IMG/VR virus record: IMGVR_UViG_3300026196_000002
Location: 1 to 58,351 of that record
From: a virus
Lineage: Duplodnaviria; Caudoviricetes
Strand: one strand, 5' to 3'
DNA length: 58,351 nucleotides
In this document: positions 8,985 through 50,107 of the stretch, piece after piece
Layout: every line of letters starts with the position of its first letter
How positions within the stretch are numbered: position 1 is the first letter of the stretch
Made by a program: the position numbers and the translations under genes
The notes under the pieces: model-generated
What the model saw: the letters and a program-made list of their open reading frames with translations, nothing else
Told to the model about the DNA's origin: nothing
The model's database searches: none

Positions 8985-9188
8985 ATGAAAATAGAACAAG
9001 AAAACCCACTTTATAAACCGATAACTATCACGCTTGAAGAATGGCATGAAGCAAAAGCATTGTTCGGAATTATTGATAAGGCTGAGGTGTGGAGATGCAA
9101 CGCAGAAAACCCAAAATTTACCCACGACGAAATTAAAATGTTAATAGACTTATCAGACGCACTGACCAACCAAGTTGTAAGCGTATAA
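8985..9188 (+). CDS. Cassette ORF, hypothetical
   Basis: RBS AAGGAG; stop codon within the GTATAAC core. Confidence 0.75.
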   Translation: MKIEQENPLYKPITITLEEWHEAKALFGIIDKAEVWRCNAENPKFTHDEIKMLIDLSDALTNQVVSV

Positions 9189-9318
9189 CTGACTTAGATC
9201 AGCTGCGGCGACGTGAAGTTAAGTTTATTACCGCATTAATCGGATAAAACAGACGTATGTTCCGTCCGCTTGATGCACTGGTTAGGTTCTTATCACAACT
9301 TTTTGAAAGGGAGTAATC

Positions 9319-9525
9319 ATGGCAGCAGAAGCTATTTATATTGTTTGGTGCCCGACCGGAGATACCCCACCAATTATCCGCCACCAGTCAGTTGACGAAG
9401 CACGAAGGGCGGCAAGGGATATGTGCCAAAATCACCCACACAAGGAATTTTTTGTGATGAGGGCTGTTGAGTCTGTGCAATACAGAACAGACCCTTTTGT
9501 TTGCAAGAGCTACTGTAAGCGTTAA
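9319..9525 (+). CDS. Cassette ORF, hypothetical phage protein
   Basis: RBS GGGAG; bounded by GTTAGGTTCTT and AAGAACCTAAC. Confidence 0.75.
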   Translation: MAAEAIYIVWCPTGDTPPIIRHQSVDEARRAARDMCQNHPHKEFFVMRAVESVQYRTDPFVCKSYCKR

Positions 9526-9642
9526 GAACCTAACATTACAAATAACTGGTGGCGACGAGCCGACCGAGCATTTAGCGAACAGGGTGTTCCATCCACGTTG
9601 ATTTGCTGGTTAGTTTGCGCTGCTGAGAAGAGGAGAACGACG

Positions 9643-9804
9643 ATGGCAAAAGGTGAAATGGATAAACAGCCCTGCAAAACCTGCGGAAAAGAAACGAACC
9701 AAGTCTTTAATATTGGATTCAAGGCTGTGCCCATTTGTAATTCGTGTGCGAACACGATAGCTATGCAGCAGTTGGGATGGTTGATTGAACACCAAGCAAC
9801 CTAA
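9643..9804 (+). CDS. Cassette ORF, Zn-finger (two CxxC)
   Basis: CKTC...CNSC; RBS AGGAG. Confidence 0.7.
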   Translation: MAKGEMDKQPCKTCGKETNQVFNIGFKAVPICNSCANTIAMQQLGWLIEHQAT

Positions 9805-9839
9805 CGTTACTGATAACCAGGGGCGACGAGGAGGACGTA

Positions 9840-10127
9840 ATGACTGACGAAATGGACTGTAACAGTTGCGTAGTGACTGATTTGGAAGATCAAGAGTGCG
9901 ACGTGTGCCATGCAGAGCAAGTGCGTGAACCCGCACAGGAACACCCCTCTGCGTTAATTGGCTTGTTAGCACGCGCTCTTTGCAAGGCGGACACCCTTGG
10001 ATATGAGCGCGGTTTCACTGACGCAGACCCTACGGCTGGAAACACCGATGATGCGTTAATGGAGGTGGTTGAAATGACATGGAAAGAATGGATAGAGGAC
10101 GCCGAGCAAGTTTTACGTGCGTGCTAA
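9840..10127 (+). CDS. Cassette ORF starting inside the attC loop
   Basis: RBS GAGGAGG inside site 9799-9971; two CxxC. Confidence 0.7.
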   Translation: MTDEMDCNSCVVTDLEDQECDVCHAEQVREPAQEHPSALIGLLARALCKADTLGYERGFTDADPTAGNTDDALMEVVEMTWKEWIEDAEQVLRAC

Positions 10128-10237
10128 CGTTGGAATAAGCGCGTGGCGGGTAATAGCTGGCGACAGGGTTTGATCCTGTGAACCACACCACTATTTCCAT
10201 CCGCTTCATGTACATGGTTAGCCAAGGAGTAGACATT

Positions 10238-10495
10238 ATGAAAAAGGGATATTTAATTTTAGCAAGAGCTCCGCTGCTACCAATACATGCGGTATGTGAG
10301 TTTATTTTATTGCTGGCAACCTTAATACTGCTGCCGTTTATTTGGATGTCTGGGCGGCTTATAGATATTGCCGAAAAGATGCCAGACATGAGTTGGTACA
10401 AGGGGGCTGAGTACCACAACTTAAAGGCGAGGATAAACGCGAAAATTAAAAAACGCCTGAAAGAGAAAGAAGCTCGTTTGCCGAAGGCTGACTAA
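10238..10495 (+). CDS. Cassette ORF, membrane protein
   Basis: RBS AAGGAG; hydrophobic segment. Confidence 0.7.
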   Translation: MKKGYLILARAPLLPIHAVCEFILLLATLILLPFIWMSGRLIDIAEKMPDMSWYKGAEYHNLKARINAKIKKRLKEKEARLPKAD

Positions 10496-10526
10496 CTATT
10501 GAGATAACCGGATTGTGGAGGAAGAG

Positions 10527-10778
10527 ATGGCATTTTGCAAACACAATGGCGGTGGACCGAAGACGTGCCCGGCATGTCGTCGCGAGGGTAGCAATTCCGC
10601 GTTGATTGACGGGTTAGCCGCCGAACAGATCAAAAAGGGGATAAGCGAGATTCTTCATGCCGCCCTGAGTGGAATAGACGAAACCCTGCGACATGAGAAA
10701 AGTTATATACGATGGGGGCTGGTCGAGAAAAGGATACATGAGAAAGTGGATGAACTGCTGAATGTTCATGGCGGCTAA
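10527..10778 (+). CDS. Cassette ORF starting inside the attC loop
   Basis: RBS GGAGG in the attC arm; CKH...CPAC. Confidence 0.7.
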   Translation: MAFCKHNGGGPKTCPACRREGSNSALIDGLAAEQIKKGISEILHAALSGIDETLRHEKSYIRWGLVEKRIHEKVDELLNVHGG

Positions 10779-10880
10779 CGAAATTAATAAGCGGCGGCGG
10801 CTCAATGGTGGGCCGCGTAGCGGCGCGGACAGGTTCACCGTCCGCTTGATTTAAGGGTTGTACGGCAGAGGAGGTGGAAA

Positions 10881-11039
10881 ATGGCATGCCCTGGATGTGG
10901 TTGTAAGGTGACTTACCAGCACGACTGTATGGACGACGACTACAATAGCGAAGGTGAAGAGTACGAACGGTGCGCAGCCTGCGGCTTTGTTTTTGATATT
11001 GAACTGGCCGCAGATGATGACGACGCCGAAAATTTTTAG
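10881..11039 (+). CDS. Cassette ORF, 52-aa acidic Zn-finger
   Basis: Manual translation MACPGCGCK...RCAACGF...; RBS GAGGAGG. Confidence 0.75.
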   Translation: MACPGCGCKVTYQHDCMDDDYNSEGEEYERCAACGFVFDIELAADDDDAENF

Positions 11040-11091
11040 CCGTACAACGCCCCAGTAAGCGGCTACGACGAAATGACGGAGGATTGACGCA

Positions 11092-11388
11092 ATGGAATGT
11101 ACACACCCAGAACCAAGGGCCTATTGTAAGCACGATGACGGATGCAACGACTGCGGCAAGTTTGGTTTAGCAGAGCCGGTTCCTAGTCCGCTTGACGATA
11201 TGGTTAGCCTGCAAGCAGTTCGAGCGTGCATCGAATATCTTTTAAATGGATTTGAGAGCCGAGAAGATGTCACACCACGAAAAATTTGTTTAGAGGCACT
11301 GCAAAGAAATGGGATACCGCTTGACGTTAAGTACAGCACCTTAGCAGAACGAACCAAAAGATACACTGTGAGCGTGGAAGGCAGATAA
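11092..11388 (+). CDS. Cassette ORF starting inside the attC loop
   Basis: Cys-rich N-terminus encoded in site 11042-11209. Confidence 0.65.
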   Translation: MECTHPEPRAYCKHDDGCNDCGKFGLAEPVPSPLDDMVSLQAVRACIEYLLNGFESREDVTPRKICLEALQRNGIPLDVKYSTLAERTKRYTVSVEGR

Positions 11389-11534
11389 ATTTTTCAGTAG
11401 GCTAACGCCCACGCATGAGCTGCGGCGACGAACTGCCGACCCGCGCCAGCGGAGTACCCCGCTATGTTCCGTCCGCTCGATGCGATTGTTAGATACGCTC
11501 TTCAATTTATTTTTATTTTATTTTACTTTTTCTG

Positions 11535-11563
11535 TTGACATGTGTCCCCATTGGGAATATAGT
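11535..11563 (+). promoter_or_regulatory. Strong sigma70 promoter inside a cassette, with a palindrome in the spacer
   Basis: TTGACA-17 bp-TATAGT; AT-rich upstream tract; TCCC..TGGGA dyad in the spacer. Confidence 0.85.
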
Positions 11564-11604
11564 TAAATAACAAACAAGGAACACTAACCCAACGGAGGCA
11601 CATC

Positions 11605-11925
11605 ATGGAAACAACATTAATCGTATCGTCCGGCCAGTACGAAACATCAGCTGTAAAGCTAGCTGTCAATCATAAGACGTGGGGCGGCCTCTGTCGCCGA
11701 ATTACCCAACTTGAAAATCAGTATGCTGTTTATGGTGACAATTTCGCGGGCTGGCTAAAAGCAAGTGTTTCGCTGGCGGACAGCCGCGACGAGTGGGGGG
11801 ATAATCAAATCATCGGGGGCCAGTGGTGCCAGCCCTATAACGGATGGCTGTCAGTGGAAGAAATCGATGGTCCGTTTATGTCCTACGATGATCTCCATAA
11901 AAAACTTTATGGGTGCAACCGATGA
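11605..11925 (+). CDS. Cassette ORF, hypothetical, with its own promoter
   Basis: RBS GGAGG; 106 aa. Confidence 0.8.
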   Translation: METTLIVSSGQYETSAVKLAVNHKTWGGLCRRITQLENQYAVYGDNFAGWLKASVSLADSRDEWGDNQIIGGQWCQPYNGWLSVEEIDGPFMSYDDLHKKLYGCNR

Positions 11926-12101
11926 CACCCGCCGAATTAATGGAGGACCGGCAAACGCTGGGCCTCAATATTACGCAGATGGCAGCCCGCCTGAACACGC
12001 CGCGTGGAACCTATTTGAAATGGGAGCGCGGTGAACGACGGGTGCCACCATGTTTGGATGTGCTGATACCGTTGGTGATAGAAAAAGACGGGAGTATCTA
12101 A
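11922..12101 (+). CDS. Small XRE-type HTH protein
   Basis: RQTLGLNITQMAARLNTPRGTYLKWERGER; ATGA overlap with the upstream ORF. Confidence 0.85.
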   Translation: MTPAELMEDRQTLGLNITQMAARLNTPRGTYLKWERGERRVPPCLDVLIPLVIEKDGSI

Positions 12102-12222
12102 CGGTGGTGATAAGCGGTGGATTGCTACCGCTTGCATACAAACGAATTAATCAAACTAGCAGCATGTAACAACCATCCGCTTGATTAGGTTGTTATAATG
12201 CGCTGTTTCGCAGGGGGCGGGA

Positions 12223-12405
12223 ATGGATGCAAAAGAGACTAGCAGATTGATAGGTGCCGCGTATAAGCGAGGCATTGAGGATATCTGCGACACAATGGCT
12301 GAATCTGTCCGAATTATTGCAGAAGGCTTGCCGGGAGTAACCTTCACAACACAAGACTTAATAGCCTTTATAGAGAAGGCCAAAAATGAGGGCCTAGCAT
12401 TATAA
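12223..12405 (+). CDS. Cassette ORF, hypothetical
   Basis: Fills the cassette; stop codon in the core site. Confidence 0.7.
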   Translation: MDAKETSRLIGAAYKRGIEDICDTMAESVRIIAEGLPGVTFTTQDLIAFIEKAKNEGLAL

Positions 12406-12535
12406 CAGTGATGATAACCAGTTGCCGTAGACAGGTGGATTGACCGCCGAGCAGTTATAGGGAGAACACGCGCCGCTCCTTGCAATCTGCGTTGATTTTT
12501 TGGTTAGTTTGCGCTGCTGAGAAGAGGAGATAACA

Positions 12536-12742
12536 ATGTTTAAACATGATGATAACTGTCCTGTTTGCGTAAAACACCCAATAGACGAGGTGCAATGCCA
12601 ATGTAAAGACCAATTTTATAGGGAAAAATTGGCGCTGGAATATTGTAACCAATACAACATAAACGATGATTCACCAGAAAGGGATGCAATAATAAACGCG
12701 TTTATAGTTGGGATAACTATTGGAGAAAAACGAGCAAACTAA
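12536..12742 (+). CDS. Cassette ORF, Cys-containing hypothetical
   Basis: RBS AGGAG; stop codon in the core site. Confidence 0.7.
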   Translation: MFKHDDNCPVCVKHPIDEVQCQCKDQFYREKLALEYCNQYNINDDSPERDAIINAFIVGITIGEKRAN

Positions 12743-12838
12743 CGGTAAAGCTAAGCGGCGGCGACGCGAGGCTTAAATAAAAACACCAGACGGATAACCC
12801 GTCCGACTTTAGCACCTTGTTAGGCGTGGGAGAATGAA

Positions 12839-13003
12839 ATGCAAATATTGGAACTTGTAAAACTGCTGAACCAGCAGGCAAACGAGATAGCGTCTGCTGG
12901 GCATAATGGCTGGGGAAATACAATGCGAGATGCTGCCGACAAACTTGAGGAGTTGCAAGAGCGTATTTACCAACTAGAGAATCAATGTGCTAATGGTGCC
13001 TAA
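12839..13003 (+). CDS. Cassette ORF, 54-aa coiled-coil
   Basis: Manual translation MQILELVKLLNQQANEIASAGHNGWGNTMRDAADKLEELQ...; stop codon in the core site. Confidence 0.7.
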   Translation: MQILELVKLLNQQANEIASAGHNGWGNTMRDAADKLEELQERIYQLENQCANGA

Positions 13004-13049
13004 CGGTAGTGATAAGCGGCGGATTGCCGCCAGAAGGGATACCACCGCA

Positions 13050-13322
13050 ATGGGCAGAAAAGAGCCAACACCTCCGCCAGAAAATGCCGTGAAGCCTTCG
13101 CCACCACCAGCACCACCTGTTCGGCAAAATTCGGCTGCTTGTTCCCGTCCGGTTGATTTGATGGTTATACGCAAAACCTTGGAGCGCGAAATTGCTTCTA
13201 AGCAAAAATCCGTTGATAGACTGCACCGAAAGGGTGCATTGGAGGCCGCTGCAAGGGAGGACGCTGTACGCGAAGGGCTAGCGTGGGGGCTATTCGTGCT
13301 GTCCCAAAAGTGCAGCGTATAA
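13050..13322 (+). CDS. Cassette ORF with Pro-rich N-terminus encoded in the attC
   Basis: MGRKEPTPPP...SRPVDLMVIR; start position uncertain. Confidence 0.55.
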   Translation: MGRKEPTPPPENAVKPSPPPAPPVRQNSAACSRPVDLMVIRKTLEREIASKQKSVDRLHRKGALEAAAREDAVREGLAWGLFVLSQKCSV

Positions 13323-13451
13323 CGACCTGCATAACAGGTGGCGACGTGCCGATGAAACTATTGACGCAATCAAAGCGGTTTTCGGGGAGCACAGACCTAT
13401 TTTCCATCCGCGTTGATGCACTGGTTAGCCCATACCAGAAAGGATCGCACG

Positions 13452-13646
13452 ATGTACGATAGAGATTTTTTAATTTGGCTACATGAGCGCATGGAGCATG
13501 TACACCAAGAAAGCCATTTAGTAGATTACATGCACAAGTTACGAGCGATAATTAAAAGGACCCCGCCAAAGCAAATGACACCGAATGCCATGGGCAAAAA
13601 CAACCTTGAAGAGCTGAAAGAGGAACTAGGCATCTTAAAGGGCTAA
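13452..13646 (+). CDS. Cassette ORF, hypothetical phage protein
   Basis: DRDFLIWLHERM...DYMHKLRAII. Confidence 0.75.
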   Translation: MYDRDFLIWLHERMEHVHQESHLVDYMHKLRAIIKRTPPKQMTPNAMGKNNLEELKEELGILKG

Positions 13647-13784
13647 CGCTTGCGGATAACCGGTGGCGCTGCTAACTGACAACCTTTACCGCAATTTAGA
13701 TTTTGCTTTTTGTAAACCACAGAGGCCCATTCCATCCGCGTTAATTAGCTTGTTATGTGGCCTGTTTCGGAATAGGGGACTGAT

Positions 13785-13970
13785 ATGAAAATAGTTATTG
13801 AACACGATACAGACGAAAAACAATACGGACGTGTGTTGGTGCAGACAAAGCATGGTGGACGATCTGATGTTAGCAATGGGGACTATGTTGAATTAACGCC
13901 TGAATTATTAGATGCGATTCAAAAAGCACAGGTTGAAATGGACAGGGTGAGTAGACTTTTGAAAGTTTAG
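13785..13970 (+). CDS. Cassette ORF, hypothetical
   Basis: RBS AGGGG; fills the cassette. Confidence 0.7.
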   Translation: MKIVIEHDTDEKQYGRVLVQTKHGGRSDVSNGDYVELTPELLDAIQKAQVEMDRVSRLLKV

Positions 13971-14102
13971 ATGCCACATAACAGTACTGATAAGCTGCGG
14001 CGACGCACCCTTTGCGGGCCACCGAGCTTATCGTAAACCACGGCGCTATTCCCCGTCAGCTTGATTATTTTGTTATATTTTAATTTTACACGGAGCAAGT
14101 TT

Positions 14103-14309
14103 ATGAAAAAACAAAGACCTATTTTTATTGAATACTCATGGGTTGACCCGTGGGACGGCAGTTTTTGTGCTGGAGGGAGTTGCCCATATTTAAAAGGAAG
14201 AATGCTACGCGGTGTATACCGCAAAGAAATTCTTGCTGCGAAGAAACTTGCAAGGGGATGGACCGGGCCCAGAACCCCAAGACTGCAGGTATTAGTCCAT
14301 AAAATATAA
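14103..14309 (+). CDS. Cassette ORF, basic hypothetical
   Basis: RBS GGAG; stop codon in the core site. Confidence 0.65.
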   Translation: MKKQRPIFIEYSWVDPWDGSFCAGGSCPYLKGRMLRGVYRKEILAAKKLARGWTGPRTPRLQVLVHKI

Positions 14310-14409
14310 CGCCCATGTTAAGCGGTGGCGGATGGACGGTGACTAAGAAGCAGACGCCTTGTTCCATCCGCTTGAACTAATTGTTAGCCCAAACCACAGG
14401 AGATCAAAA

Positions 14410-14580
14410 ATGATACAGATTGAACAGGTGGCAAATGGTTTTGTGGTGACTTCTGGCATAATGCACCGCGGAGAGTGCCGCAGCAATGATGACACGTACG
14501 TTTTTCAAACAATGGAAAATCTCCAAAAGTGGATTGATCAACATTTTAGCCCCGTGCAAAAGACCGCGAGGCAAGATTAA
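14410..14580 (+). CDS. Cassette ORF, hypothetical
   Basis: RBS AGGAG; IEQVANGFVV motif. Confidence 0.75.
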   Translation: MIQIEQVANGFVVTSGIMHRGECRSNDDTYVFQTMENLQKWIDQHFSPVQKTARQD

Positions 14581-14701
14581 GGGCTAACGTCAATGGTAAC
14601 CGGAGGCGACGAACCGGCTCGGCTACCTACGCAATTTTGATTTTCAATTTTGCACAGACGTATATTCATTCCGGTTCACTCAATTGTTAGCGAGGCGCTT
14701 T

Positions 14702-14926
14702 ATGGACTACCTAGGGATTTGGCTTCTTGTGCTGGTAGCGTTTGCCGGTGGGTGGGGATGGGGGCAATGGCAAGCAGAAAGAACAATGCGGCAAGAAAAG
14801 TCGCTGAACGAAAAAGGACGAGTGGTTGTTTCTATGCCAATGCGTGAAGACAACGCTTCTCAAATGATGGGGATGCTACAGGATTTAATAAAGCAGGCCG
14901 AAGAAACCAACGCCGAGCCACGCTAA
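14702..14926 (+). CDS. Cassette ORF with N-terminal transmembrane segment
   Basis: RBS GAGG; hydrophobic N-terminus. Confidence 0.7.
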   Translation: MDYLGIWLLVLVAFAGGWGWGQWQAERTMRQEKSLNEKGRVVVSMPMREDNASQMMGMLQDLIKQAEETNAEPR

Positions 14927-15051
14927 CAGTACTGATAAGCTGCGGCAGCGCACCCCTTGCGAACCGCCGCGCTTATCGTAAACCACAGCGCCATTTTTCC
15001 GTCAGCTTGATTTGATGGTTCAACGCCTACGCTACCAAGGGAGATAAAATT

Positions 15052-15240
15052 ATGGCAAACAGGAAAAGGTATACAAAGGTGACGCGGAATGAGGCGTGCT
15101 GTATTTTCGACGAAGACGGGCTGCTTGGAGAAATCGAAATTTTCCTCGAAGCTGAAGAGCCTGGCGACAAAATCACCCTCGAAATTGTTTCCATGACTGA
15201 GGATGAGTACGCCTCTTTGCCAGAATTCACTGGTTGGTAG
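15052..15240 (+). CDS. Cassette ORF, acidic
   Basis: RBS GGGAG; C-terminus similar to 48207..48389. Confidence 0.75.
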   Translation: MANRKRYTKVTRNEACCIFDEDGLLGEIEIFLEAEEPGDKITLEIVSMTEDEYASLPEFTGW

Positions 15241-15375
15241 GCGAGCGTTGAACGATTGGAATAAGCGGTGGAGCAGCTACCAGAGAGAACCTACGCAATT
15301 GCTCTTGCTTTTTGAGAACCGGCGCGGATCGGACATCCGCTTGATTTTGTGGTTATGCGTAACCACAGGAGGTTG

Positions 15376-15573
15376 ATGATGGGGATTATACGATTAACGC
15401 CGCAGTTACGGTACATCGAAACCGATGAGAATATGTCGAGTTTATCGCCGTGCACGCATCTACCCGGATACCCTGAAAATGGCAGCACGTTTTTCAAATT
15501 ACAGCAGGCGTGGGAAGATATTGAAGACGGAAGTTTGCATTGGAAAGACGTAGAAATTGATTATAGCGCATAA
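15376..15573 (+). CDS. Cassette ORF, hypothetical
   Basis: RBS AGGAGG; KLQQAW...WKDV motif. Confidence 0.75.
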   Translation: MMGIIRLTPQLRYIETDENMSSLSPCTHLPGYPENGSTFFKLQQAWEDIEDGSLHWKDVEIDYSA

Positions 15574-15701
15574 CGGTGCTGTTAAGCGGGTACGACGCGA
15601 CCTGTGAGACGCACCGAACAATTATCTTTGAAATCAGCAGCAGCCAATTTTACTCCGCTTGAACTTTTGGTTGTGCTGCAAACACTTTGAGCGAGGCAAA
15701 A

Positions 15702-15896
15702 ATGAACCCGATTGTAAAAGGTAGGTTTATATCAAACAAATGCCCAGATCCAAATTGTGATGGTGTTTTGCAACACAGACAGAACAAATATGGAGAAAAC
15801 CGCTGGGAATGTGACGGCCTTGTTGACCCAAATGATATTACAAAAGAGCTGCAACCCTGCCTTGTGGACGTGGTAGACGGGGAGTTACGTTTATAG
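15702..15896 (+). CDS. Cassette ORF, Zn-ribbon-like
   Basis: CPDPNCDG...WECDG...PC. Confidence 0.7.
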   Translation: MNPIVKGRFISNKCPDPNCDGVLQHRQNKYGENRWECDGLVDPNDITKELQPCLVDVVDGELRL

Positions 15897-16011
15897 CAGC
15901 ACAACGGTGAAGATAAGCGGCGGCGATGTGCCGTAACCTATGGAAAACAAAGCTATTTTCCGTCCGCCTTCATTTTATTGTTATAATTCGTACTTTATTT
16001 GCTGATTTCCC

Positions 16012-16039
16012 TTGACAACGTAACTAGTTATGGTAATAT
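16012..16039 (+). promoter_or_regulatory. Sigma70 promoter inside a cassette, with palindromic operator TAACTAGTTA
   Basis: TTGACA-16 bp-TAATAT with extended -10 TG; perfect 10-bp palindrome at 16021-16030. Confidence 0.75.
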
Positions 16040-16066
16040 CTAAGTAACTTAACAAAGGAGGCAGCC

Positions 16067-16258
16067 ATGAAGCAAAAAACTTGGATTAAGTATTCTGTGA
16101 AATCAATGATGGGTGAAGTTGTCAACGGTGAGATAAACCTGAATTGGGCGTTTGATGCTGACTTGGTGAACAATTTCGACAAGACCATGCGCTACCTTGA
16201 GCGGGACGCCGGTTGTTATATCAAGGAAGTTCTCGAATTTGAGTCGGGGACAAAATGA
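16067..16258 (+). CDS. Cassette ORF, hypothetical, with its own promoter
   Basis: RBS AAGGAGG. Confidence 0.8.
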   Translation: MKQKTWIKYSVKSMMGEVVNGEINLNWAFDADLVNNFDKTMRYLERDAGCYIKEVLEFESGTK

Positions 16259-16410
16259 CCAAACTTGATGACCTTCTGGAAGGGCTAACCGAGGCCGAAT
16301 TGAAAACACTACGTGCCAAGATAAACGGGAAGATCGGAAAGCGTAGTATATCGCCAGAGGCACAGGCCAAGATGCAGGAAGCGCGCAAGAAAAAGCACCA
16401 AGAATTATAA
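16255..16410 (+). CDS. 51-aa basic protein, possible DNA-binding autoregulator
   Basis: Manual translation MTKLDDLLEGLTEAELKTLRAKINGKIGKRSISPEAQAKMQEARKKKHQEL; ATGA overlap. Confidence 0.7.
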   Translation: MTKLDDLLEGLTEAELKTLRAKINGKIGKRSISPEAQAKMQEARKKKHQEL

Positions 16411-16539
16411 CATTTGGAATAACCGGTGGCCGTAGAAACCTGCGTGAGCCACCACTATTTTGCACTTAAATTTACAACCGCAGCCAGTTGCCATCCGCGT
16501 TGATGTCCCTGGTTATGTGGCCTGCTGAATGGAGGGAAA

Positions 16540-16710
16540 ATGCCAGATTTTGAGAGAGTGTTGGACGAACTGAGTATTGACCTAGCGCAGACAGATGCAG
16601 ATAGGCAGTATGCAAAAGGATATATAGCCGGTAAAAACCGGGCGCGGTTTGAAATACTTGGAGTGGTGGTTGTGCTGTATTTTGTAATAGCACTAATCGG
16701 TAAACTTTAA
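16540..16710 (+). CDS. Cassette ORF, 56 aa with C-terminal transmembrane segment
   Basis: Manual translation; RBS GGAGG. Confidence 0.7.
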   Translation: MPDFERVLDELSIDLAQTDADRQYAKGYIAGKNRARFEILGVVVVLYFVIALIGKL

Positions 16711-16841
16711 GCCACATAACAGTACTGATAAGCTGCGGCGGCGCACCTTTTGCGCACCACCGAGCTTATCGTAATTTGCAGCGCCATTTTCCGTCAGCTT
16801 GATTTGATGGTTGGCTGGCGCTGGTTCCTACGGAGAGAATA

Positions 16842-17033
16842 ATGAGCAAGAAAGAGCGACGGAACTACACCATTACCGCCGAACGTTCTGACCACGGCAA
16901 GTCGTCAGTTGACATCAAGTGTCCATTTTGTGGCTCGATCACAACCGCTTACCTTTGGTCCCTGGCCGGCAGTGGGAAAAAATGTGAATGTGGGGCAAAG
17001 CATACATATCTGAACGGGACAATTGCGGCATAG
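16842..17033 (+). CDS. Cassette ORF, Zn-finger
   Basis: CPFCG...WSLAGSGKKCECGAKH. Confidence 0.75.
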   Translation: MSKKERRNYTITAERSDHGKSSVDIKCPFCGSITTAYLWSLAGSGKKCECGAKHTYLNGTIAA

Positions 17034-17160
17034 CCAGCCAACAGTGAAGATAACTGGTTACGACGCGAACCAGGCGAACCACCGAGTTTTTCGAGAACCG
17101 CATCTTTATTTTAATCCAGTTCATTTTTTGGTTAGTTTGCGAACCTTGAAAGGGCAACCG

Positions 17161-17343
17161 ATGATTACTAAAACTACAATTTCAAACTTTATAAAAAAGA
17201 TCGATAAAAAGCAGATAAAAATCGGAAAAGAGCGAGACTCTTTAGACGACCTGATTTCTGATATGGCACAACTGCGCGAGGACTGCAGCGAAGCATGGGA
17301 CAATTTGCAGGACGCAAGAGACGCGCTGAGCCGTATGCAGTAA
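17161..17343 (+). CDS. Cassette ORF, coiled-coil
   Basis: Fills the cassette. Confidence 0.7.
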   Translation: MITKTTISNFIKKIDKKQIKIGKERDSLDDLISDMAQLREDCSEAWDNLQDARDALSRMQ

Positions 17344-17461
17344 AGCAAACTAACGTTCGAGTAAGCGGCAGCGGAAAACTGCCAAAATAAGAACCACACA
17401 GCTATTTTCTGTCCGCTTGACGTAGCTTGTTAGGCGTTACCACTACCGATGGAGCGTGGGA

Positions 17462-17647
17462 ATGATTGCTGATCTGAAACAACCGGCAAAATACTGGCTG
17501 GCTGATCACCTGAATAACTTTGGAGTATTACTCGAAAAAGGAGAAGACCCAAGTTGCCTGATTACCTACGGTGGTGTAGAGATCGAGATTAGGCTGAATA
17601 AGGTGCCAGGAGTCTTCGAGCGTAAAGAAATTTCACTTAGCGCCTAA
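17462..17647 (+). CDS. Cassette ORF, hypothetical
   Basis: RBS GGAG; stop codon in the core site. Confidence 0.7.
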   Translation: MIADLKQPAKYWLADHLNNFGVLLEKGEDPSCLITYGGVEIEIRLNKVPGVFERKEISLSA

Positions 17648-17675
17648 CGACCTGATAACCGGATTTGTGGAGGAT

Positions 17676-17972
17676 ATGATGGAAAAGTTTGTTGATGCGT
17701 TGCCAGAAGGTGAGCGTGAGCTACGTAAGTTTTTTGCAGAGACGGAAACAAATTCCGCGTTGATTGACTTGTTGTGCCCAGCCCGGATCGAGATAACCAC
17801 CGACCACATAGCCGAGAAATTGGATGAAATGGCCGACATTGCAGAATACTGGAGAAAGAACAGAGATAAAAAACGTATGCCAGGTGCGATACGTGCCGCA
17901 ATGCTGATGCTGGCCGAAGAATTGACCATGCTTAACAAAGTAAATGAAATTCCTAGACAGGAGTGCGGCTAG
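17676..17972 (+). CDS. Cassette ORF starting inside the attC loop
   Basis: RBS GGAGG in the attC arm; NSALIDLLC is encoded by the other arm. Confidence 0.7.
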   Translation: MMEKFVDALPEGERELRKFFAETETNSALIDLLCPARIEITTDHIAEKLDEMADIAEYWRKNRDKKRMPGAIRAAMLMLAEELTMLNKVNEIPRQECG

Positions 17973-18137
17973 TTATTTTAAGGGCACAACGCCCTGATAA
18001 CTGCGTTTGCGGGAAAGTACGTAGACATTATTCGGACAGGGGCGCAAAACGAGAAACCTAGACCGATTAAATTTGCAGAGCTGAAAGCAAATCCACGTTG
18101 ATTACGCTTGTTAGCCTGCCGAGAGAGGTAGCTAATC

Positions 18138-18329
18138 ATGAAAGTTTCGGAATTGATGGAACGGCTTGGAAAATACAACCCTGACGCTGATGTGGATGTT
18201 GTAGCCAATAACAAGGGCCACGAGTTCTCTTTTGCGTACGGCAATAGCGAAGGCTGCACCATAGAAAATTGTGAGACTGTTAGTTTGTGGGTAGACAGCT
18301 TAAATGACGGTGGCGAGTCAGCAGGCTAA
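18138..18329 (+). CDS. Cassette ORF, hypothetical phage protein
   Basis: MKVSELMERLGKYNPDADV-type N-terminus. Confidence 0.75.
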   Translation: MKVSELMERLGKYNPDADVDVVANNKGHEFSFAYGNSEGCTIENCETVSLWVDSLNDGGESAG

Positions 18330-18451
18330 CGGCTTGGTCAGCGGATGCGACGCAATGCTTGTGAACCACTGACCTCTTCAAAAATTTGCAGAAGTATTTT
18401 CATTCCGCTGCACTGAATGGTTGTGCGGCAAACAGCCAGAGCGAGGTAGAA

Positions 18452-18652
18452 ATGTTTGCATATCATTATTTTGCAGAGTTTAAGTGTGCGGCAGGCACAG
18501 CCAGGATGGATGGGGTAATCACGAGCGACAAAAAGATAGTAGATTACGACGGATACACAGCGATGAAGCGAGAAATCACAAAAGGGACAGACATTGAGGG
18601 TATGCCAGAGAAGCTATCTGTTTGCTCGTTGCAGCTACTTCATAAATTTTAG
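18452..18652 (+). CDS. Cassette ORF, hypothetical
   Basis: RBS GAGG. Confidence 0.7.
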   Translation: MFAYHYFAEFKCAAGTARMDGVITSDKKIVDYDGYTAMKREITKGTDIEGMPEKLSVCSLQLLHKF

Positions 18653-18705
18653 CCGCACAACGCCATAGTAACCGGCTACCCACTGAAAGAAAGGAACGCT
18701 GCGCA

Positions 18706-18984
18706 ATGAAATGCGACAAACACGATTGCTGGCTTGATGAAGAACCAAATAACCCAAGTGCGCTGTACTGCCCATTGTGCGAGGCAGAGCGGGACGTTAG
18801 TCCGGTTGACGAACTTGTTAGACCGCAGGCGCATATTGCAAGCGATTGCTCTGCAGAACACTTTGAGCGCGTGTTTAACTGGCAGAAACAAAATTTTACC
18901 TGCGCTAAATGTGGGACTGGACGCAGTGTGAAATATAAGAAGGGTGGAAAGCCGTACTGCAATATGTGTGTTCTAGCGGGCTAA
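18706..18984 (+). CDS. Cassette ORF, multiple Zn-finger motifs, starting inside the attC loop
   Basis: CDKH, CPLC, CAKC, CNMC. Confidence 0.7.
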   Translation: MKCDKHDCWLDEEPNNPSALYCPLCEAERDVSPVDELVRPQAHIASDCSAEHFERVFNWQKQNFTCAKCGTGRSVKYKKGGKPYCNMCVLAG

Positions 18985-19105
18985 CGAGGGAGTTGAGCGC
19001 TGCGGCGGTAGCGCACTGGCGAACCACCGCAATTTTGCTCTTGTAAATTTGCAGAATATTTTTCCGTCCGCTCGAACGTTTGGTTAGATTTACGGAGGCT
19101 ATAGA

Positions 19106-19315
19106 ATGGCAAGCGCGTATAGAGATGTTGATATTCGTGGACTTAGAAAGGCGCATTTTAACCAACTGCGAAACTATGTGCACAGTAGAGATGAGGAAGG
19201 CTGGTACTACGGCAACAAGGAGCAGTTTGAAAAGAGGCACGAAGACCTGAAACAATGGATTGATTCTGTTTGCGATCTATTTAACCAGAGTGATGTTGTT
19301 ATTGAGAAGAAGTAA
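19106..19315 (+). CDS. Cassette ORF, hypothetical
   Basis: RBS GGAGG; GWYYGNKEQFEKRH motif. Confidence 0.75.
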   Translation: MASAYRDVDIRGLRKAHFNQLRNYVHSRDEEGWYYGNKEQFEKRHEDLKQWIDSVCDLFNQSDVVIEKK

Positions 19316-19434
19316 ATCTAACGGTGAAGATAAGCGGCGGGGATTGACTGCCGACCCGCGAAGCGGCAACGCACAGCTAACCCCGTCCGACTTGATTATT
19401 TGGTTCTATTTCTAACCTGAAACGGAGAACGATT

Positions 19435-19617
19435 ATGGAAGTTTACAGACCGGACCGCCGCTGTGAAATTACCGGAATGCCACTTGACACATCTTCTATG
19501 GGTTTTTGGTCTTCGCCATTTAAAAAGGCTAAACGTGGCGGTACAAAAAGGACTGCTAAACAAAAAGAAAAGCAAAAGATGCAAAAGGCTAGCAGGCGTA
19601 AAAACCAGAAGAAATAG
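19435..19617 (+). CDS. Cassette ORF, highly basic
   Basis: KMQKASRRKN C-terminus. Confidence 0.7.
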   Translation: MEVYRPDRRCEITGMPLDTSSMGFWSSPFKKAKRGGTKRTAKQKEKQKMQKASRRKNQKK

Positions 19618-19759
19618 AACGTGAGTTATTAACCGGCGACAACGAGACTTAACAACTTACAGCGCAATTTAGATTTTTCTTTTCGGACAAAAACAGAAGC
19701 CGATTTCGTCCGGTTGAATTATTTGTTAGTTTGCGCTGTTACAAAAGAGGGAGGACGAT

Positions 19760-19942
19760 ATGCAATTGACACTACAGGAAGTTATGGATATTTGCCCTAG
19801 TTGGGATGATTTCTGCGAGTTAAAGGGCTTCAGCCCTTATGCAGTAAATGAGGGAGGTGGACACGTTGAGGTGAGCTTGACGCTTGAGGAAGCCTGCAAT
19901 TTGAAGATGGTAAAAAGCTGGAAGTACCCACAAGAAAACTAA
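19760..19942 (+). CDS. Cassette ORF next to the attI-like site
   Basis: RBS GGAGG; stop codon in AACTAAC. Confidence 0.75.
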   Translation: MQLTLQEVMDICPSWDDFCELKGFSPYAVNEGGGHVEVSLTLEEACNLKMVKSWKYPQEN

Positions 19943-19955
19943 CCAGCATTAGGCG
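19937..19955 (-). other. Candidate attI-like primary insertion site of array 1
   Basis: Minus strand reads CGCCTAAT-GCTG-GTTAGTT; core site with no attC hairpin; same motif as 48186-48204. Confidence 0.6.
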
Positions 19956-19997
19956 TACCATCCAAGGTGGTGGGGCAAAATGCCGCAGGAGGGGCGT

Positions 19998-20243
19998 ATG
20001 TTCAAAAAGAAAAAACGTGGGTCACGAAAATACGAATGGGCGAAGCAGTACAAGGCGGTGGGAAGGATATCTGAAGACCCGCCGGACTATCCGCACATCC
20101 CAAATACGAATGAACCCGTCATTGAAGTGATTGCAAAACATAATCTCCTTGGTGTGATTCACGAATACAAGTGCTATCCGACCATGGCAAGGTGTGACAG
20201 TTTTGATTTGTTCGTTGATGGCGAGCTTCTAGTCCGTTGCTGA
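19998..20243 (+). CDS. Hypothetical protein
   Basis: RBS AGGAGG. Confidence 0.55.
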   Translation: MFKKKKRGSRKYEWAKQYKAVGRISEDPPDYPHIPNTNEPVIEVIAKHNLLGVIHEYKCYPTMARCDSFDLFVDGELLVRC

Positions 20244-20799: not shown

Positions 20800-21375
20800 A
20801 TGGCTCGGGACAGGGAAATTGATTGGGAGCGGGTGGAAGATCTCTATCGCGCCGGGCAAATCTCGATCCGTGAAATAGGGAGACAGTGCGGAGTAACGGA
20901 TACGTCTATCCGCAAAAAAGCGAAACGGGAGGGGTGGGAGAGAGACCTATCAAAAAAGGTCGCAGAAAAGGTTCGCAGTGAGCTGGTTCGCGCCGAAGGT
21001 CGCAGTGAAACCGCCCCGACGGAAAAAGAAATCATCGAACACGCAGCAGCACAGGGGGTAGAGATAGTTCGCAGCCATCAGCGCAGGATCGGTGCGGCGC
21101 AGGAAGTTGCGGATACATTGCTCAAACAGTTGCAGGGTGTGATACTCCACAGCGAAGATATAGAAGAAGAAATCCTAATCGAGACAGCCGAGGACAGAAG
21201 TTCCAAACGACGGGACGCGATGTTTAAGGCTATATCTCTACCGATCCACTCCACAACATTATCTAATCTCACCAACGCTATGAAAACCCTCGTTTTTTTA
21301 GAGCGGCAGGCATTTAACCTGGACGAGTTATCCGGTGCTAACACCCATGAAGATGATTTGGAGATGCTGCGTTGA
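20800..21375 (+). CDS. terS: Terminase small subunit (HTH N-terminus)
   Basis: IDWERVEDLYRAG...SIREI...IRKKAKREGWER; directly upstream of terL. Confidence 0.8.
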   Translation: MARDREIDWERVEDLYRAGQISIREIGRQCGVTDTSIRKKAKREGWERDLSKKVAEKVRSELVRAEGRSETAPTEKEIIEHAAAQGVEIVRSHQRRIGAAQEVADTLLKQLQGVILHSEDIEEEILIETAEDRSSKRRDAMFKAISLPIHSTTLSNLTNAMKTLVFLERQAFNLDELSGANTHEDDLEMLR

Positions 21376-22931
21376 GCGAGGACAGGCTTGAGATCAAACA
21401 GCGGCTTAAGGATGATTTCTGGCACTATGCAGTGAGGTGTCTCAAAATCCGTACCAAAGCCAGCGAAACCCTCCCATTTAATCTCAACCGGGTGCAGAAC
21501 TACATACACCAGCGGCTAGAGGAGCAACGAGAAAAGACAGGGAGGGTCCGCGCTATTATTCTCAAGGGGCGGCAGCAGGGATGCTCGACCTATGTTGAGG
21601 GGCGGTTTTATTGGCGGGTGACCCATACCCCTGGTGCTCGGGCGTTTATCCTAACCCACGAGCAGGCGGCAACTGATAATTTATTTGACATGGTGTCACG
21701 CTATCACGAAAACTGCCCATCACAGGTCAAACCGCGAACCGGAGCATCGAGCGCAAAGGAACTGAGTTTTGACCGGCTCGACAGCGGGTACAAAGTCGGT
21801 ACTGCCGGGACTAAAGCGGTCGGGCGGTCTTCTACGTTCCAGTTATTCCACGGGTCGGAGGTGGCATTTTGGCCAAATGCCCAGGATCACGCGGCGGGTG
21901 TCCTGCAGGCGGTTCCGGATGAGGCCGGGACTGAGGTCATATTGGAGTCAACGGCCAACGGGATCGGTAACTACTATCACACCCAATGGCAGGATGCCGA
22001 GGCCGGATTATCGGATTTCATCGCGGTTTTTATCCCATGGTACTGGCAGGAGGAGTACAGCCGCGAGCCCGGGGAAAATTTCACCCTGAGCACTGATGAG
22101 GTTAAATACCAGGAAGAATACGGCCTGAATTTAGGTCAAATAGCCTGGAGGCGGGCGAAAATCATCGAGTTGGGCAGTGGTGGCCTGTTTAGACAGGAGT
22201 ACCCAGCGACGGCGGCAGAGGCGTTTCAGTCGTCTGGGGATGGCTACATTTTGCCTGAGATTGTCATGGGTGCTAGAAAGGCGAAAGCGGTGGAGCGGTT
22301 CGGACCTGTCCTGATCGGGGTTGACCCCTCTGCCGGGAGGACGGATAAAGCGGACCGAACAGCAATTATCCGACGCCAAGGCCGCGTTGCCTATGGTCTG
22401 GAAACGATGACAAAACTTGGGCCGCTTGGGACCATGCAAATTGTCGCAAGGATTATTGCCATTATTAACCAAGAGAGGCCGGATAAAGTTTTTCTGGACC
22501 GGGCAGGGTTAGGTGTCGGAATTCTCGACCGCCTGCATGAGTTGGGCTACGGAGATGTGGTGGTTGGTGTCAATGGTGGCGACGCAGCCAGCGACCCAAA
22601 ACGCTGGAAGAACAAAAAAGCCGAGATGTGGGACACCTGTTACACATGGCTCAAGGATCAGCCCTGCCAGATCCCCGATAGCGATGAGCTCCATGCCGAC
22701 CTGACCGGTATCCAGGGTGGGTGGGACAGTAACAGTTGTTTAGTGATGGAGACTAACGAGCATCTAGCCTCAAGAAAGATCCGCTCTCCTGATACGGCGG
22801 TGGCTTTGTGTTTGACCCATTCGTACCCGATGCGCCTAGAGATGTCATCTGCACCATTAACCACCCCGCAGGAGGATTGGCTGATTATTCAAGGGCAGAG
22901 CCATGGTGGCCGCGCCGTTAACCTGGAGTAA
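21372..22931 (+). CDS. terL: Terminase large subunit
   Basis: ILKGRQQGCST (Walker A), FHGSEVAFW (Walker B), ESTANG, nuclease motifs IGVDPS and SPDTA. Confidence 0.95.
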   Translation: MSEDRLEIKQRLKDDFWHYAVRCLKIRTKASETLPFNLNRVQNYIHQRLEEQREKTGRVRAIILKGRQQGCSTYVEGRFYWRVTHTPGARAFILTHEQAATDNLFDMVSRYHENCPSQVKPRTGASSAKELSFDRLDSGYKVGTAGTKAVGRSSTFQLFHGSEVAFWPNAQDHAAGVLQAVPDEAGTEVILESTANGIGNYYHTQWQDAEAGLSDFIAVFIPWYWQEEYSREPGENFTLSTDEVKYQEEYGLNLGQIAWRRAKIIELGSGGLFRQEYPATAAEAFQSSGDGYILPEIVMGARKAKAVERFGPVLIGVDPSAGRTDKADRTAIIRRQGRVAYGLETMTKLGPLGTMQIVARIIAIINQERPDKVFLDRAGLGVGILDRLHELGYGDVVVGVNGGDAASDPKRWKNKKAEMWDTCYTWLKDQPCQIPDSDELHADLTGIQGGWDSNSCLVMETNEHLASRKIRSPDTAVALCLTHSYPMRLEMSSAPLTTPQEDWLIIQGQSHGGRAVNLE

Positions 22932-45664: not shown

Positions 45665-46897
45665 GAAAAACCTCCTTGGATACCCCGTCCCTTGGGGCGG
45701 GGAGGAAAAGGGGTTGCACGTCAGTGCAATCGGTGTTATATTATCCTATATGAAACGAACCGTATCCGTCAAGCTGAATACGACCACTGAGCAGTCATCA
45801 TACCTTTCTGCGCTACAGGCCGAGTTCGCCGTCGTCTGCAATCTTGTGGTCCCTTTCGCCCGCGGCAACCGCTGCTGGAACCGTGTTGCGCTACACCATT
45901 TGGCCTATTACCCGGTGAGGGAGGTCTCCCCGCTTGGATCGCAAATGGTCTGCAATGCCATCAAGGCCGTAGCCAATGCCTACAAGGGGCTGAAGCTCAG
46001 GCGCAAGGATGAGGTCCCGACCGTTGTCTTCAAGCCCACCGGGTGTGTCCATTTCGATGCCCGCACCTTCTCCGTCAAGGGCGATATCGTTTCGCTCTAC
46101 ACCATGGCCGGGCGGCAGGCCGTCCCGATGTTGCCCGGTAAATTCCAGGCAGAATATCTGGCCAAAGGAAAAATCAAGGAGGCCGAACTTCTCCGCAAAC
46201 GCAACACTTGGTTTCTGAATATTGTCCTCGACCTCCCCGATGCCCCGCCCGCGACTGGTGGCGGCAGCATGGGGGTAGACGTGGGCGAGAATAACCTGGC
46301 TGCCACCTCCGCCGGAAAGATCATCGGTGGCAGTCGTCTCCGTCACACCCGCGACAAGTATCTTGCCCTTCGTCGTCGGCTTCAACGCAACGGCTCGCAG
46401 AGTGCCAAACAACTGCTCTGCAAAGTCTCCGGTCGCGAAGCCCGGCACATGAAGCATGTCAACCACGAAGCCAGCAAGGCCATCGTCGCGGAAGCCCTCA
46501 CTTCGGGCGCTTCGACCATTGTTCTGGAAGACCTCACGCACATCCGCAAAAACATCAAGGCTGGCAAACGCGTTCGTGCCCGGCTGCATCGGTGGGCGTT
46601 CGCACAGCTTCAATCCTTCGTGCGCTACAAGGCCGAAGGTGTGGGGCTGGCAGTGGCCATCGTCGATCCCGCCTACAGTTCGAAGACTTGCGCGGTGTGT
46701 GGTTGTCTCGGTACTCGGTTGAAGCATCGTTTTTCCTGTTCTGCCTGTGGAAACCTGGCGCACAGCGACTTGAACGCGAGTCGGAATCTTGCCAAGTTGG
46801 CTCCCTCTGCCGAGGGTTCCAGGGTCGCCGTAACCCGGCCTTATGTGGCAACTTCGGTTGACCATAATGCTCCGTCGCTTGCGGCGGGGTAGTTTAC
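45665..46897 (+). mobile_element. IS200/IS605-family element, TnpB only (IS1341-like); left boundary approximate
   Basis: Left hairpin CCCCGTCC-CTT-GGGGCGGGG (about 45683-45702); right hairpin CTCCGTCGCTTGCGGCGGGG followed by TAGTTTAC; no tnpA. Confidence 0.8.
45750..46892 (+). CDS. tnpB: RNA-guided endonuclease TnpB
   Basis: RuvC motifs GVDVG, IVLEDL, HSDLNASRNL; zinc finger CAVC/CSAC. Confidence 0.93.
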   Translation: MKRTVSVKLNTTTEQSSYLSALQAEFAVVCNLVVPFARGNRCWNRVALHHLAYYPVREVSPLGSQMVCNAIKAVANAYKGLKLRRKDEVPTVVFKPTGCVHFDARTFSVKGDIVSLYTMAGRQAVPMLPGKFQAEYLAKGKIKEAELLRKRNTWFLNIVLDLPDAPPATGGGSMGVDVGENNLAATSAGKIIGGSRLRHTRDKYLALRRRLQRNGSQSAKQLLCKVSGREARHMKHVNHEASKAIVAEALTSGASTIVLEDLTHIRKNIKAGKRVRARLHRWAFAQLQSFVRYKAEGVGLAVAIVDPAYSSKTCAVCGCLGTRLKHRFSCSACGNLAHSDLNASRNLAKLAPSAEGSRVAVTRPYVATSVDHNAPSLAAG

Positions 46898-47646: not shown

Positions 47647-48098
47647 TTTCTATACACCCCAATCTTCTTCAGCCGGTTAACCACCACCATGTAGTGACCA
47701 ATCCCCAACTCATCCGCGATTTCCTTCGGCTTCATACCAGATACGTAGAGTTCACGAATCTTGGCGTCCAAGTTGTGAGCCTCCTCGCTGTAGCCGTCGC
47801 CATCGCTGAGAGTGTCCGCAACCGAGGCGTCAACGCTGACCGGAGGCTGAATGCCCTGTTTTTTGGCACCGTCAACCCGCACCTTGCCATAAATATCCGC
47901 ATATGGAGCACCGCAATTAGGGCACTCTATCGCGTCACCAGTAACCCCGGAGTGTTCTGGGAAACTGGCCCACCCGTTTCCCTTGAATGGTTCATTGAGA
48001 GCGAACATACTACCATTGGGGGTCTTGTCTGGGTCAAACTTGTCGGTCGTTTGGTGGTAGGGCCCACCGCAATTGTTTCTACATAATATGTTGGTCAT
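47643..48098 (-). CDS. Zn-binding protein with C-terminal HTH
   Basis: CRNNCG, CPNCG; GMKPKEIADELGI. Confidence 0.7.
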   Translation of the reverse strand: MTNILCRNNCGGPYHQTTDKFDPDKTPNGSMFALNEPFKGNGWASFPEHSGVTGDAIECPNCGAPYADIYGKVRVDGAKKQGIQPPVSVDASVADTLSDGDGYSEEAHNLDAKIRELYVSGMKPKEIADELGIGHYMVVVNRLKKIGVYRK

Positions 48099-48204: not shown

Positions 48205-48206
48205 GG

Positions 48207-50081: not shown

Positions 50082-50107
50082 ATTTATAACCTTTATGGAG
50101 GCACCAA

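Follow-up and report, generated by a model that had tools for sequence, protein, structure and literature searches.

Two candidate attI-type sites of a bacterial integron family at the ends of inverted cassette arrays in an integrase-less phage

The window, meaning the whole stretch of DNA that was analysed, is a soil virus record (IMGVR_UViG_3300026196_000002) of 58,351 bp with direct terminal repeats and an IMG/VR completeness of 100%. A long plus-strand module runs from ~20 to 45.6 kb and includes an ORF of 2801 aa; the record also encodes an SSB, a DUF1064 protein, an IstB/DnaC-like loader, an amidase and a predicted PolB-type 3'-5' exonuclease. No tyrosine recombinase was found in the complete 58,351-bp record by TIGR02249 and PF00589 searches, to which control genomes responded. 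Two arrays of small ORFs separated by repeats together occupy ~13.6 kb, or 23% of the genome, and hold 39 cassettes. The arrays, their distal ends and the genes discussed here are:

9183-19943, plus strand: array 1, with 32 attC sites; the plus strand is the attC bottom strand and the coding strand
48198-50901, minus strand: array 2, with seven attC sites; the minus strand is the attC bottom strand and the coding strand
9183-9189, minus strand: distal end of array 1, where the top strand reads R box GTTATAC and then GCTTACA
51056-51087, minus strand: distal remnant of array 2, attC-like but degenerate and truncated, undetected by the attC model and read from the sequence
51076-51082: top-strand R box GTTATGC within this remnant
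19980-20243, plus strand: conserved small gene outside array 1, preceding the terminase genes
21372-22931: gene taken as the terminase large subunit on the basis of its position and many viral relatives, without a Pfam match
45714-46892, plus strand: TnpB / Cas12f-like protein (OrfB_IS605 and TNB domains)
47643-48098, minus strand: gene outside array 2, starting just downstream of the array 2 copy of a block shared by both flanks

The TnpB-like gene follows immediately on the 2801-aa ORF and separates the structural module from two genes facing array 2; no TnpA was found among the ORFs scanned. Approximately eight tandem copies of a 12-nt unit (GTTTATTATCTG) were seen at 52388-52483, within ORF 52008-52832 (minus strand). 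Positioned just upstream of the DnaC/IstB-like gene, these repeats look like replication-origin iterons.

On the coding strand, the repeats between the small ORFs read YTAAC-N6-GATAAGCGG ... CC-N-TCCGCTTGAT-N6-GTTRRRY. Their consensus fold, built from 22 copies, contains 16 pairs, 10 of which show compensatory changes; the internal repeats are thus attC sites by definition. A covariance model made from the phage attC copies identified 37 sites in the window at E ≤ 3.2e-5 (30 on the plus strand, 9183-19731, and seven on the minus strand, 48416-50901) and nothing comparable outside the arrays. The total of 32 for array 1 comprises the 30 model matches, a weak match at 18657-18823 and a site located by pattern and R-box chain at 17984-18116. 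This chain, whereby the R box closing one site is the exact complement of the box opening the next, was unbroken at 24 of 32 steps in array 1 and five of seven in array 2, counts that take coordinates as given and in which several failures trace to model coordinates displaced by a few bases. With 32 and 7 attC sites and no integrase nearby, both arrays fit the description of a CALIN (at least two attC sites, integrase absent nearby). They are not complete integrons, in which intI, attI and array share one locus, since the integrase is absent.

A near-identical pair of attC sites is shared across the arrays (14304-14389 and 49085-49170), and the sites at 13976, 14921 and 16714 within array 1 are 71-87% identical. 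Such attC sites look as if they had been swapped or duplicated between cassettes whose ORFs differ. The distal ends also resemble one another on the top strand (GTTATAC-GCTTACA at 9189-9183; GTTATGC-GCTAAAT from 51076), as would be expected of remnants of the right half of an attI ancestral to both; R boxes being compositionally constrained, this likeness is suggestive only. Protein comparison of the cassette ORFs across all fetched loci gave a match for only one of 132 ORFs, too small a number for cassette content to be compared between arrays. A near-identical phage was present in a second soil sample (38% of the genome's words, in short and thin contigs), identical where its contigs covered the array, including across several attC sites. 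Four joints were found in that sample, none of them an alternative junction at either site described below and all with sides of at most 30 letters within attC repeats; 19241-20174 was without cover.

The polarity of the attC sites was controlled against the class 1 integron of plasmid R46 (NC_003292). On the top (cassette-coding) strand, the extra bases of the R46 aadA1 attC lie in the 5' arm (TT[C]AAGCCG[A]CGCC), and on the bottom strand [T]CGGCTT[G]AA stands in the 3' arm. The coding strand of the phage repeats resembles the aadA1 bottom strand, with two extra bases in the 3' arm (CC-N-[T]CCGCTT[G]AT). Since the extrahelical bases fall in the 3' arm of the coding strand, the phage cassette genes lie on the attC bottom strand. 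As a second check, 12 bacterial integrons with divergent intI were inspected; the strand of the attC model was the intI strand, and the outermost cassette boundary lay between the last site and intI, as polarity predicts. This polarity places the expected attI at the high-coordinate end of array 1 and at the low-coordinate end of array 2.

Gene content agrees with the inversion of the cassette genes, which the earlier note had asserted. Ten PHROG families (HTH regulators and proteins of unknown function) were matched, all by bottom-strand ORFs, and none by the 45 top-strand ORFs; Pfam recognised HTH domains alone among the phage cassette ORFs. Starts preceded by a Shine-Dalgarno (SD) sequence were found for 12 of 60 bottom-strand and two of 72 top-strand phage ORFs. 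Counted by strand with the SD rule, array 1 gave 11 bottom and 0 top and array 2 gave 0 and 2, although the first cassette of array 2 has a clean bottom-strand ORF with SD and ATG at which this crude rule fails. The same counts were 3 bottom and 9 top for bacterial arrays, and 21 bottom and 5 top for other viral arrays. Base skews were consistent with inverted cassette genes; the coding strand could not be told from the length of the longest ORF. The 'paralogues' seen on the top strand are short (13-28 aa) and were discarded as they run through attC DNA. We conclude that the inversion of the cassette genes relative to bacterial arrays is real, and it appears to be general to viral arrays with the phage type of attC.

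At the end of each array at which attI is expected stands the motif CGCCTAAT-N4-GTT, for which the earlier note had proposed an attI-like role. The sequences were read as it had claimed, CGCCTAAT-GCTG-GTTAGTT and CGCCTAAT-CCCT-GTTGTAC, and its placing of the motif at the polarity-predicted attI end is borne out by R46, by the 12 bacterial integrons and by both GTT being cassette boundaries. The sites, with the crossover marked by a slash, and the cassettes that adjoin them are:

19937-19955, minus strand: attI-like simple site of array 1; L box CGCCTAAT at 19955-19948, spacer GCTG, R box G/TTAGTT at 19943-19937
48186-48204, plus strand: attI-like simple site of array 2; L box CGCCTAAT at 48186-48193, spacer CCCT, R box G/TTGTAC at 48198-48204
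19614-19731, plus strand: attC of the cassette adjoining the array 1 site; ORF of this cassette 19760-19942, plus strand
48416-48501, minus strand: attC of the cassette adjoining the array 2 site; ORF 48207-48389, minus strand, with SD and ATG

The full motif occurs exactly twice in the window, at 19955-19941 (minus strand) and 48186-48200 (plus strand). The 8-mer alone was found at the same two positions only; as 1.78 occurrences are expected, it is the position and not the count that matters. The array 1 box GTTAGTT and the R box at 19725-19731 are exactly complementary, as are the array 2 box GTTGTAC and GTACAAC at 48416. Because the GTT opens the complement of the adjoining cassette's box, the 12 bases that precede it are the non-cassette half of a recombination junction. 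As in attI, the boundary of the first cassette is at the top-strand 5' end of the array and the crossover falls within the R box. The claim that neither site has an attC hairpin was upheld, with no covariance-model match at E ≤ 1 (filters off) and no second arm at either site; the motif thus has the form of a double-stranded attI and not of an attC. It differs from a standard attI in lacking an adjacent intI, none being present in the complete record. Between the two sites the 8-mer is identical, the spacer agrees at one of four positions and the bases outside differ.

A reading of the motif as promoter or terminator was dropped, since neither copy is overlapped by a promoter-like or terminator-like site. 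Matches to sigma-70-like promoters were at chance level (20 found, 20.4 expected), with two good plus-strand examples inside array 1 (11535-11563 and 16012-16039). A long string of co-directional genes has its 3' end at each site, and it is plausible that the sites are promoter-distal.

The flanks are another matter. They had been described as otherwise unrelated, which proved incorrect: a 14-mer, TGGGGCAWWATGCC, lies just outside each motif and is free of mismatches only at 19971-19984 and 48113-48129. The elements of the flanks are:

19971-19984, plus strand: shared block TGGGGCAAAATGCC (coding strand AAGGTGGTGGGGCAAAATGCC), the RBS and ATG of gene 19980-20243
48113-48129, minus strand: copy of the shared block beside array 2, opening a 13-codon frame only
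48130-48148, plus strand: degenerate second copy of the site, CACCTAAT-ACCA-ATTAAAC, in which A replaces the crossover G

The degenerate copy sits ~50 nt outside the intact array 2 site. Block and box are separated by 17 nt at array 1 and ~50 nt at array 2, without conservation of the intervening sequence, and the outward genes of the two ends have no protein relatedness to each other. From their shared elements, the two array ends are paralogous modules, and the mutual identity of the two phage sites therefore counts as one observation, not two.

Bacterial relatives of the sites were sought by scanning genome contigs with a degenerate attC-arm pattern, which gave at least 120 stretches for filtering with the model. 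Among the matches listed, the best model scores were 60-78 bits, the range of the phage's own attC sites, and were found in Desulfuromonas sp., Malonomonas rubra, an uncultured deltaproteobacterium and MAGs of Desulfobulbaceae and Geopsychrobacteraceae; the matches listed also included Sedimenticola and Thiohalomonadaceae. An integron integrase above the curated cut-off was encoded by all five genomes tested and, within the order of Malonomonas, by 73 of the 151 genomes sampled. To locate junctions, the attC nearest intI was taken and the complement of its R box was sought towards intI. Eighteen intI-adjacent junctions were located in this way, 12 with intI divergent from the cassettes and six with intI co-directional, the strands being verified from ORFs; the intI loci L296 and L298 had no recognisable junction, and L295 a probable one only. 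The consensus of the 18 junctions is YGTCTAWT-N4-G/TT, with these 8-mers as L boxes 4 nt before G/TT:

CGTCTATA, CGTATATT, CGTCTAAT (twice), GGCTATTT, GGCCTATT, TGTAGATT, GGTCTAAT, TGTTCAAT
ATCTAATT, TGTATAAT, CACCTAAT, TGTCTATT (twice), CTTCCATT, CGTCTAGA, ATATAAAC, TGTCCATT

Examples of complete junctions are CACCTAAT-CCCT-GTT, CGTCTAAT-TCTA-GTT and CGTCTAAT-TACC-GTT. The junction of Malonomonas rubra (CACCTAAT-CCCT-G/TT) equals that of phage array 2 (CGCCTAAT-CCCT-G/TT) at 14 of 15 positions. In a log-odds matrix built from the 18 bacterial sites alone, with its register (N4) taken from the phage motif and with mutual close relatives among the sites, the phage 8-mer CGCCTAAT scored 8.40 bits. 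The two phage sites ranked 3 and 4 among the 2117 N8-N4-GTT positions on both strands of the window, and a fraction of 2.6e-4 of window 8-mers scored as high as the phage box or higher. The score was 7.77 bits (4.6e-4) without the Malonomonas site and 8.06 bits with unique 8-mers only. Leave-one-out scores of true bacterial sites ran from 9.9 to -8.1, with a mid-range of ~6.8, and no internal attC boundary appeared within the best 12 of the 2117 ranked positions. Judged by the bacterial matrix, the phage box is thus what attI has upstream of its R box, a degenerate L box specific to the type of integron. The comparison with attI sites of host-type integrons, suggested alongside the original proposal of a candidate phage attI, therefore favoured that proposal. 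A nineteenth attI came from an IMG/VR contig (L160), where CGTTGAAT-TTGA-G/TT and a verified integron integrase (472.6 bits against a cut-off of 265) are 89 nt apart.

The best match to the bacterial matrix in the window is CGTCTATT-GGGT-GTTTTAC at 12569-12587 (minus strand; 10.5 bits), on the top strand of array 1 and inside the cassette ORF 12536-12742; a second such match is at 56104 (minus strand). Approximately 0.5 positions of at least 8.4 bits are expected by chance, and the match at 12569-12587 may be a chance one or an attI-like site borne within a cassette. Among the bacterial integrons, six of the order of Malonomonas (L308, L309, L311, L318, L320 and L326) have intI co-directional with the cassette top strand; their attI lies ~170 nt past the end of intI, with L boxes that fit the consensus (TGTCTATT-TAYT-GTT). 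In many bacterial integrons of the same attC type, among them L314, L303, L293, L307 and L328, a palindrome with a 7-8-bp stem precedes the attI L box by 8-10 nt. The L314 palindrome, CTGTGTTATAACACAG, fits CTGT-N8-ACAG, which we take to be the form of a LexA box. The array 2 flank of the phage has palindromes of its own (TATAAAC-C-GTTTATA) at a similar place.

Viral arrays were sought in IMG/VR with the same attC pattern (90 stretches) followed by the model, and many viral contigs were found to bear arrays of the phage attC type. No tyrosine recombinase was present in eight of the 10 viral records tested, including two that are 100% complete and one that is 92% complete. Two 100% complete viral genomes, G160 and G162 (loci L113 and L085), have multi-site arrays and no tyrosine recombinase. 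Integrase-less arrays with bottom-strand genes seem common in viral contigs.

Conservation of the motif in related phages had been named as a test, and in the one relative that shares the array 1 locus the motif was partly conserved. Eleven further viral array ends without an adjacent integrase were located and scored; left out were those at which the locus edge or a missing R-box complement intervened (L122, L132, L085, L144, L110, L154 and L163), those that ran into another attC (L098 and L103) and L160, which has intI. A box of at least 5 bits at the N4 spacing was present at three of the 11 ends (L140, CGGCTATT; L123, TGGCTAAT; L164, TGCCTATC), and the L149 end of genome G001 scored 7.0 bits only with a spacer of 5 nt. 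Seven of the 11 had no such box, with scores of 3.3 to -8.8 bits (L113, L155, L143, L130, L091, L105 and L171). Two ~20-nt direct repeats (CGTCAGCTTGACGTTGAATA) stand before one of these ends, L091 (3800-3870; L-box score -1.5), and recall the accessory direct repeats of attI1.

G001 (36 kb, 92% complete) is the sole relative with the array 1 locus. It shares the small gene (39% identity), which has a single IMG/VR relative, together with the RBS block and a boundary at nearly equal distance; its L box agrees at five of eight bases. The G001 array has at least seven attC sites, with cassettes that differ from those of the phage. The 250-aa gene beside array 2 has no IMG/VR relatives. Among 80 loci drawn from 150 relatives of the terminase, the phage type of attC occurred in one (L001), and the motif and the shared block occurred in none; these loci are thus too distant to serve as a test of conservation. 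On the sequences compared, the motif thus shows partial conservation at one homologous end; at other viral ends it is enriched without being universal. The sole independent test of a host link was negative, no relative of the terminase being found as a prophage in 233 genomes of the order of Malonomonas, and the putative host is thus assigned from the types of attC and attI.

Four other accounts of the motif were weighed. The sites might be leftovers of captured host integron fragments, no longer used, in arrays that are static or recombine by attC x attC exchange only. Several observations are compatible with this: the phage has no integrase, a degenerate extra copy stands beside array 2, the L box has diverged in G001, the contigs of the second soil sample are identical across several attC sites where they cover the array, and an attI-headed CALIN is already known from an inactive Shewanella prophage (PMC9892861). 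However, the 8-mer is intact in both copies while neighbouring bases differ, and its matrix score is inside the range of working bacterial sites. Furthermore, cassette genes occupy opposite strands in phage and bacteria, so the arrays are not plain copies of host arrays, and the 17 nt between the array 1 L box and the phage RBS imply that integron sequence from the intI side did not come along. We consider disused relics unlikely. A half attC, being the L'-R' arm of a decayed site, is scarcely credible: the 3' arm of a top-strand attC does read CCGCTTATC-N6-GTT, and CGCTTATC and CGCCTAAT agree at five of eight bases at a 2-nt shift, but model match and complementary arm are both absent, the spacing is 4 nt and not 6, and internal attC boundaries are missing from the best 12 matrix-ranked positions.

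The remaining two accounts give the likeness of the sites a different origin. If a phage-gene leader (the RBS/ATG block with its upstream bases) had been duplicated, shared ancestry alone would make the ends alike and the integrase would be irrelevant; the presence of TGGGGCAWWATGCC at both ends and of two box copies at array 2 fits this. Such a duplication leaves unexplained both the location of the box exactly 4 nt from the cassette crossover at each end and its match to 18-19 bacterial attI junctions, and the sequence from block to box is unconserved, which together make it highly improbable. Alternatively, a host IntI may once have used a fortuitous genomic GTT as a secondary site of the attG type, from which the arrays grew, since IntI is known to insert at double-stranded non-att genomic sites (10.1101/2022.09.11.507474). 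A GTT is indeed present; the additional attI-type box, an 8-nt sequence at fixed spacing that fits the cognate attI consensus at two loci, argues for attI instead, and we regard an attG origin as very doubtful.

Conversely, there is a good probability that the motif is the left half (L box and spacer) of an attI-type site at which a host IntI inserts cassettes. As far as sequence can tell, it is an attI-type site of the integron family of Desulfuromonadales and their relatives, carried twice by a phage that lacks the enzyme. The arrays are probably CALINs with cognate attI sites and inverted cargo that are served in trans by a host integrase; with no tyrosine recombinase in the phage, any use of the sites needs host IntI in trans. 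We infer current use of the sites, the identity of the host and growth of the arrays at the attI-like end.

In the proposed mechanism, L box and spacer, joined at G/TT to the first cassette, would constitute the integrase-binding left half of a double-stranded attI. The integron integrase of the infected host would bind both phage sites, and circular cassettes would enter through attI x attC recombination involving the folded bottom strand of attC. Insertion at array 1 would land immediately 5' of the small gene ahead of the terminase genes, and at array 2 just upstream of gene 47643-48098. As the cassette genes are on the attC bottom strand, each insertion would add a gene at the 3' end of a co-directional string, and as they are inverted relative to bacterial ones, host cassettes inserted here would be antisense.

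Integrons are commonly viewed as bacterial devices. It is conceivable, at somewhat less than an even chance, that phages of integron-bearing hosts keep a cognate attI and private, inverted cassettes and use host IntI in trans to shuffle genes; as other complete viral genomes show the same layout, with bottom-strand genes in arrays that lack an integrase and of which some are closed by an attI-like box, this would be a general phage strategy and not an accident. If true, nearly a quarter of the genome is a swappable library of small accessory genes. Should the sites work, phages exploit host integrases for the exchange of accessory genes, possibly for host takeover or anti-defence, cassettes could move between phage and bacterial pools, and the logic of Pc-proximal cassette expression would not apply.

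The sites can be set beside several known systems. The likeness to attI1 drawn in the earlier note was confirmed, R46 reading GTCGCCCTAAAACAAAG/TT: attI1 too is a simple double-stranded site, in which a degenerate L box accompanies an R box, and has CGCC(C)TAA upstream of G/TT. It differs in that its box is 2 nt further from the GTT (CGCCCTAAAACAAAG/TT), in its adjacent intI1 and in its accessory repeats DR1 and DR2 (PMC9892861). The Desulfuromonadales-type attI (Malonomonas rubra DSM 5091, Desulfuromonas sp. BM515) equals the phage sites in box, spacing, crossover and top-strand 5' position, and these integrons share with the phage a common attC type of 85-119 nt with the extrahelical bases [T]CCGSTT[G]A. 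The bacterial attI, however, is 74-300 nt away from the start of intI or ~170 nt beyond its end, often with a palindrome before it, and the cassette genes that follow occupy the top strand. The phage sites lack intI and directly adjoin phage genes, and the genes of the cassettes they head occupy the bottom strand.

To our knowledge, phage attC clusters described so far are small and their entry site is undescribed in active phages. Qi et al. 2023 reported 17 CALINs in phages, the figured TJE1 CALIN having three attC sites, and showed that IntI1 recombined five of six phage attC sites tested (PMC9892861). In the prophage M16-3, which is inactive and also has a complete integron, a Shewanella-type attI (...GCGCACTAATAAAATGTT) heads a CALIN (PMC9892861). 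The virulent-phage CALINs figured in that paper have few attC sites and no reported attI; its supplementary tables may list more (PMC9892861). Supplementary tables aside, our literature search found no paper on attI-headed arrays in an active integrase-less phage and no report of systematically inverted phage cassettes. The attG sites, non-att genomic sites that are recombined double-stranded and at which IntI inserts cassettes (Loot et al., bioRxiv 10.1101/2022.09.11.507474), resemble the phage sites as double-stranded IntI targets outside a classical integron. They have little in common beyond 5'-GWT-3' and differ in structure from attI (10.1101/2022.09.11.507474), whereas the phage sites fit a specific attI consensus. 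With M16-3 and the virulent-phage CALINs, the present phage shares integrase-less attC clusters in a phage genome. It differs from the CALINs of Qi et al. in being a complete, integrase-less virus in which two sites of host attI type head 32 + 7 cassettes, 39 in all, with their genes opposite to the bacterial norm.
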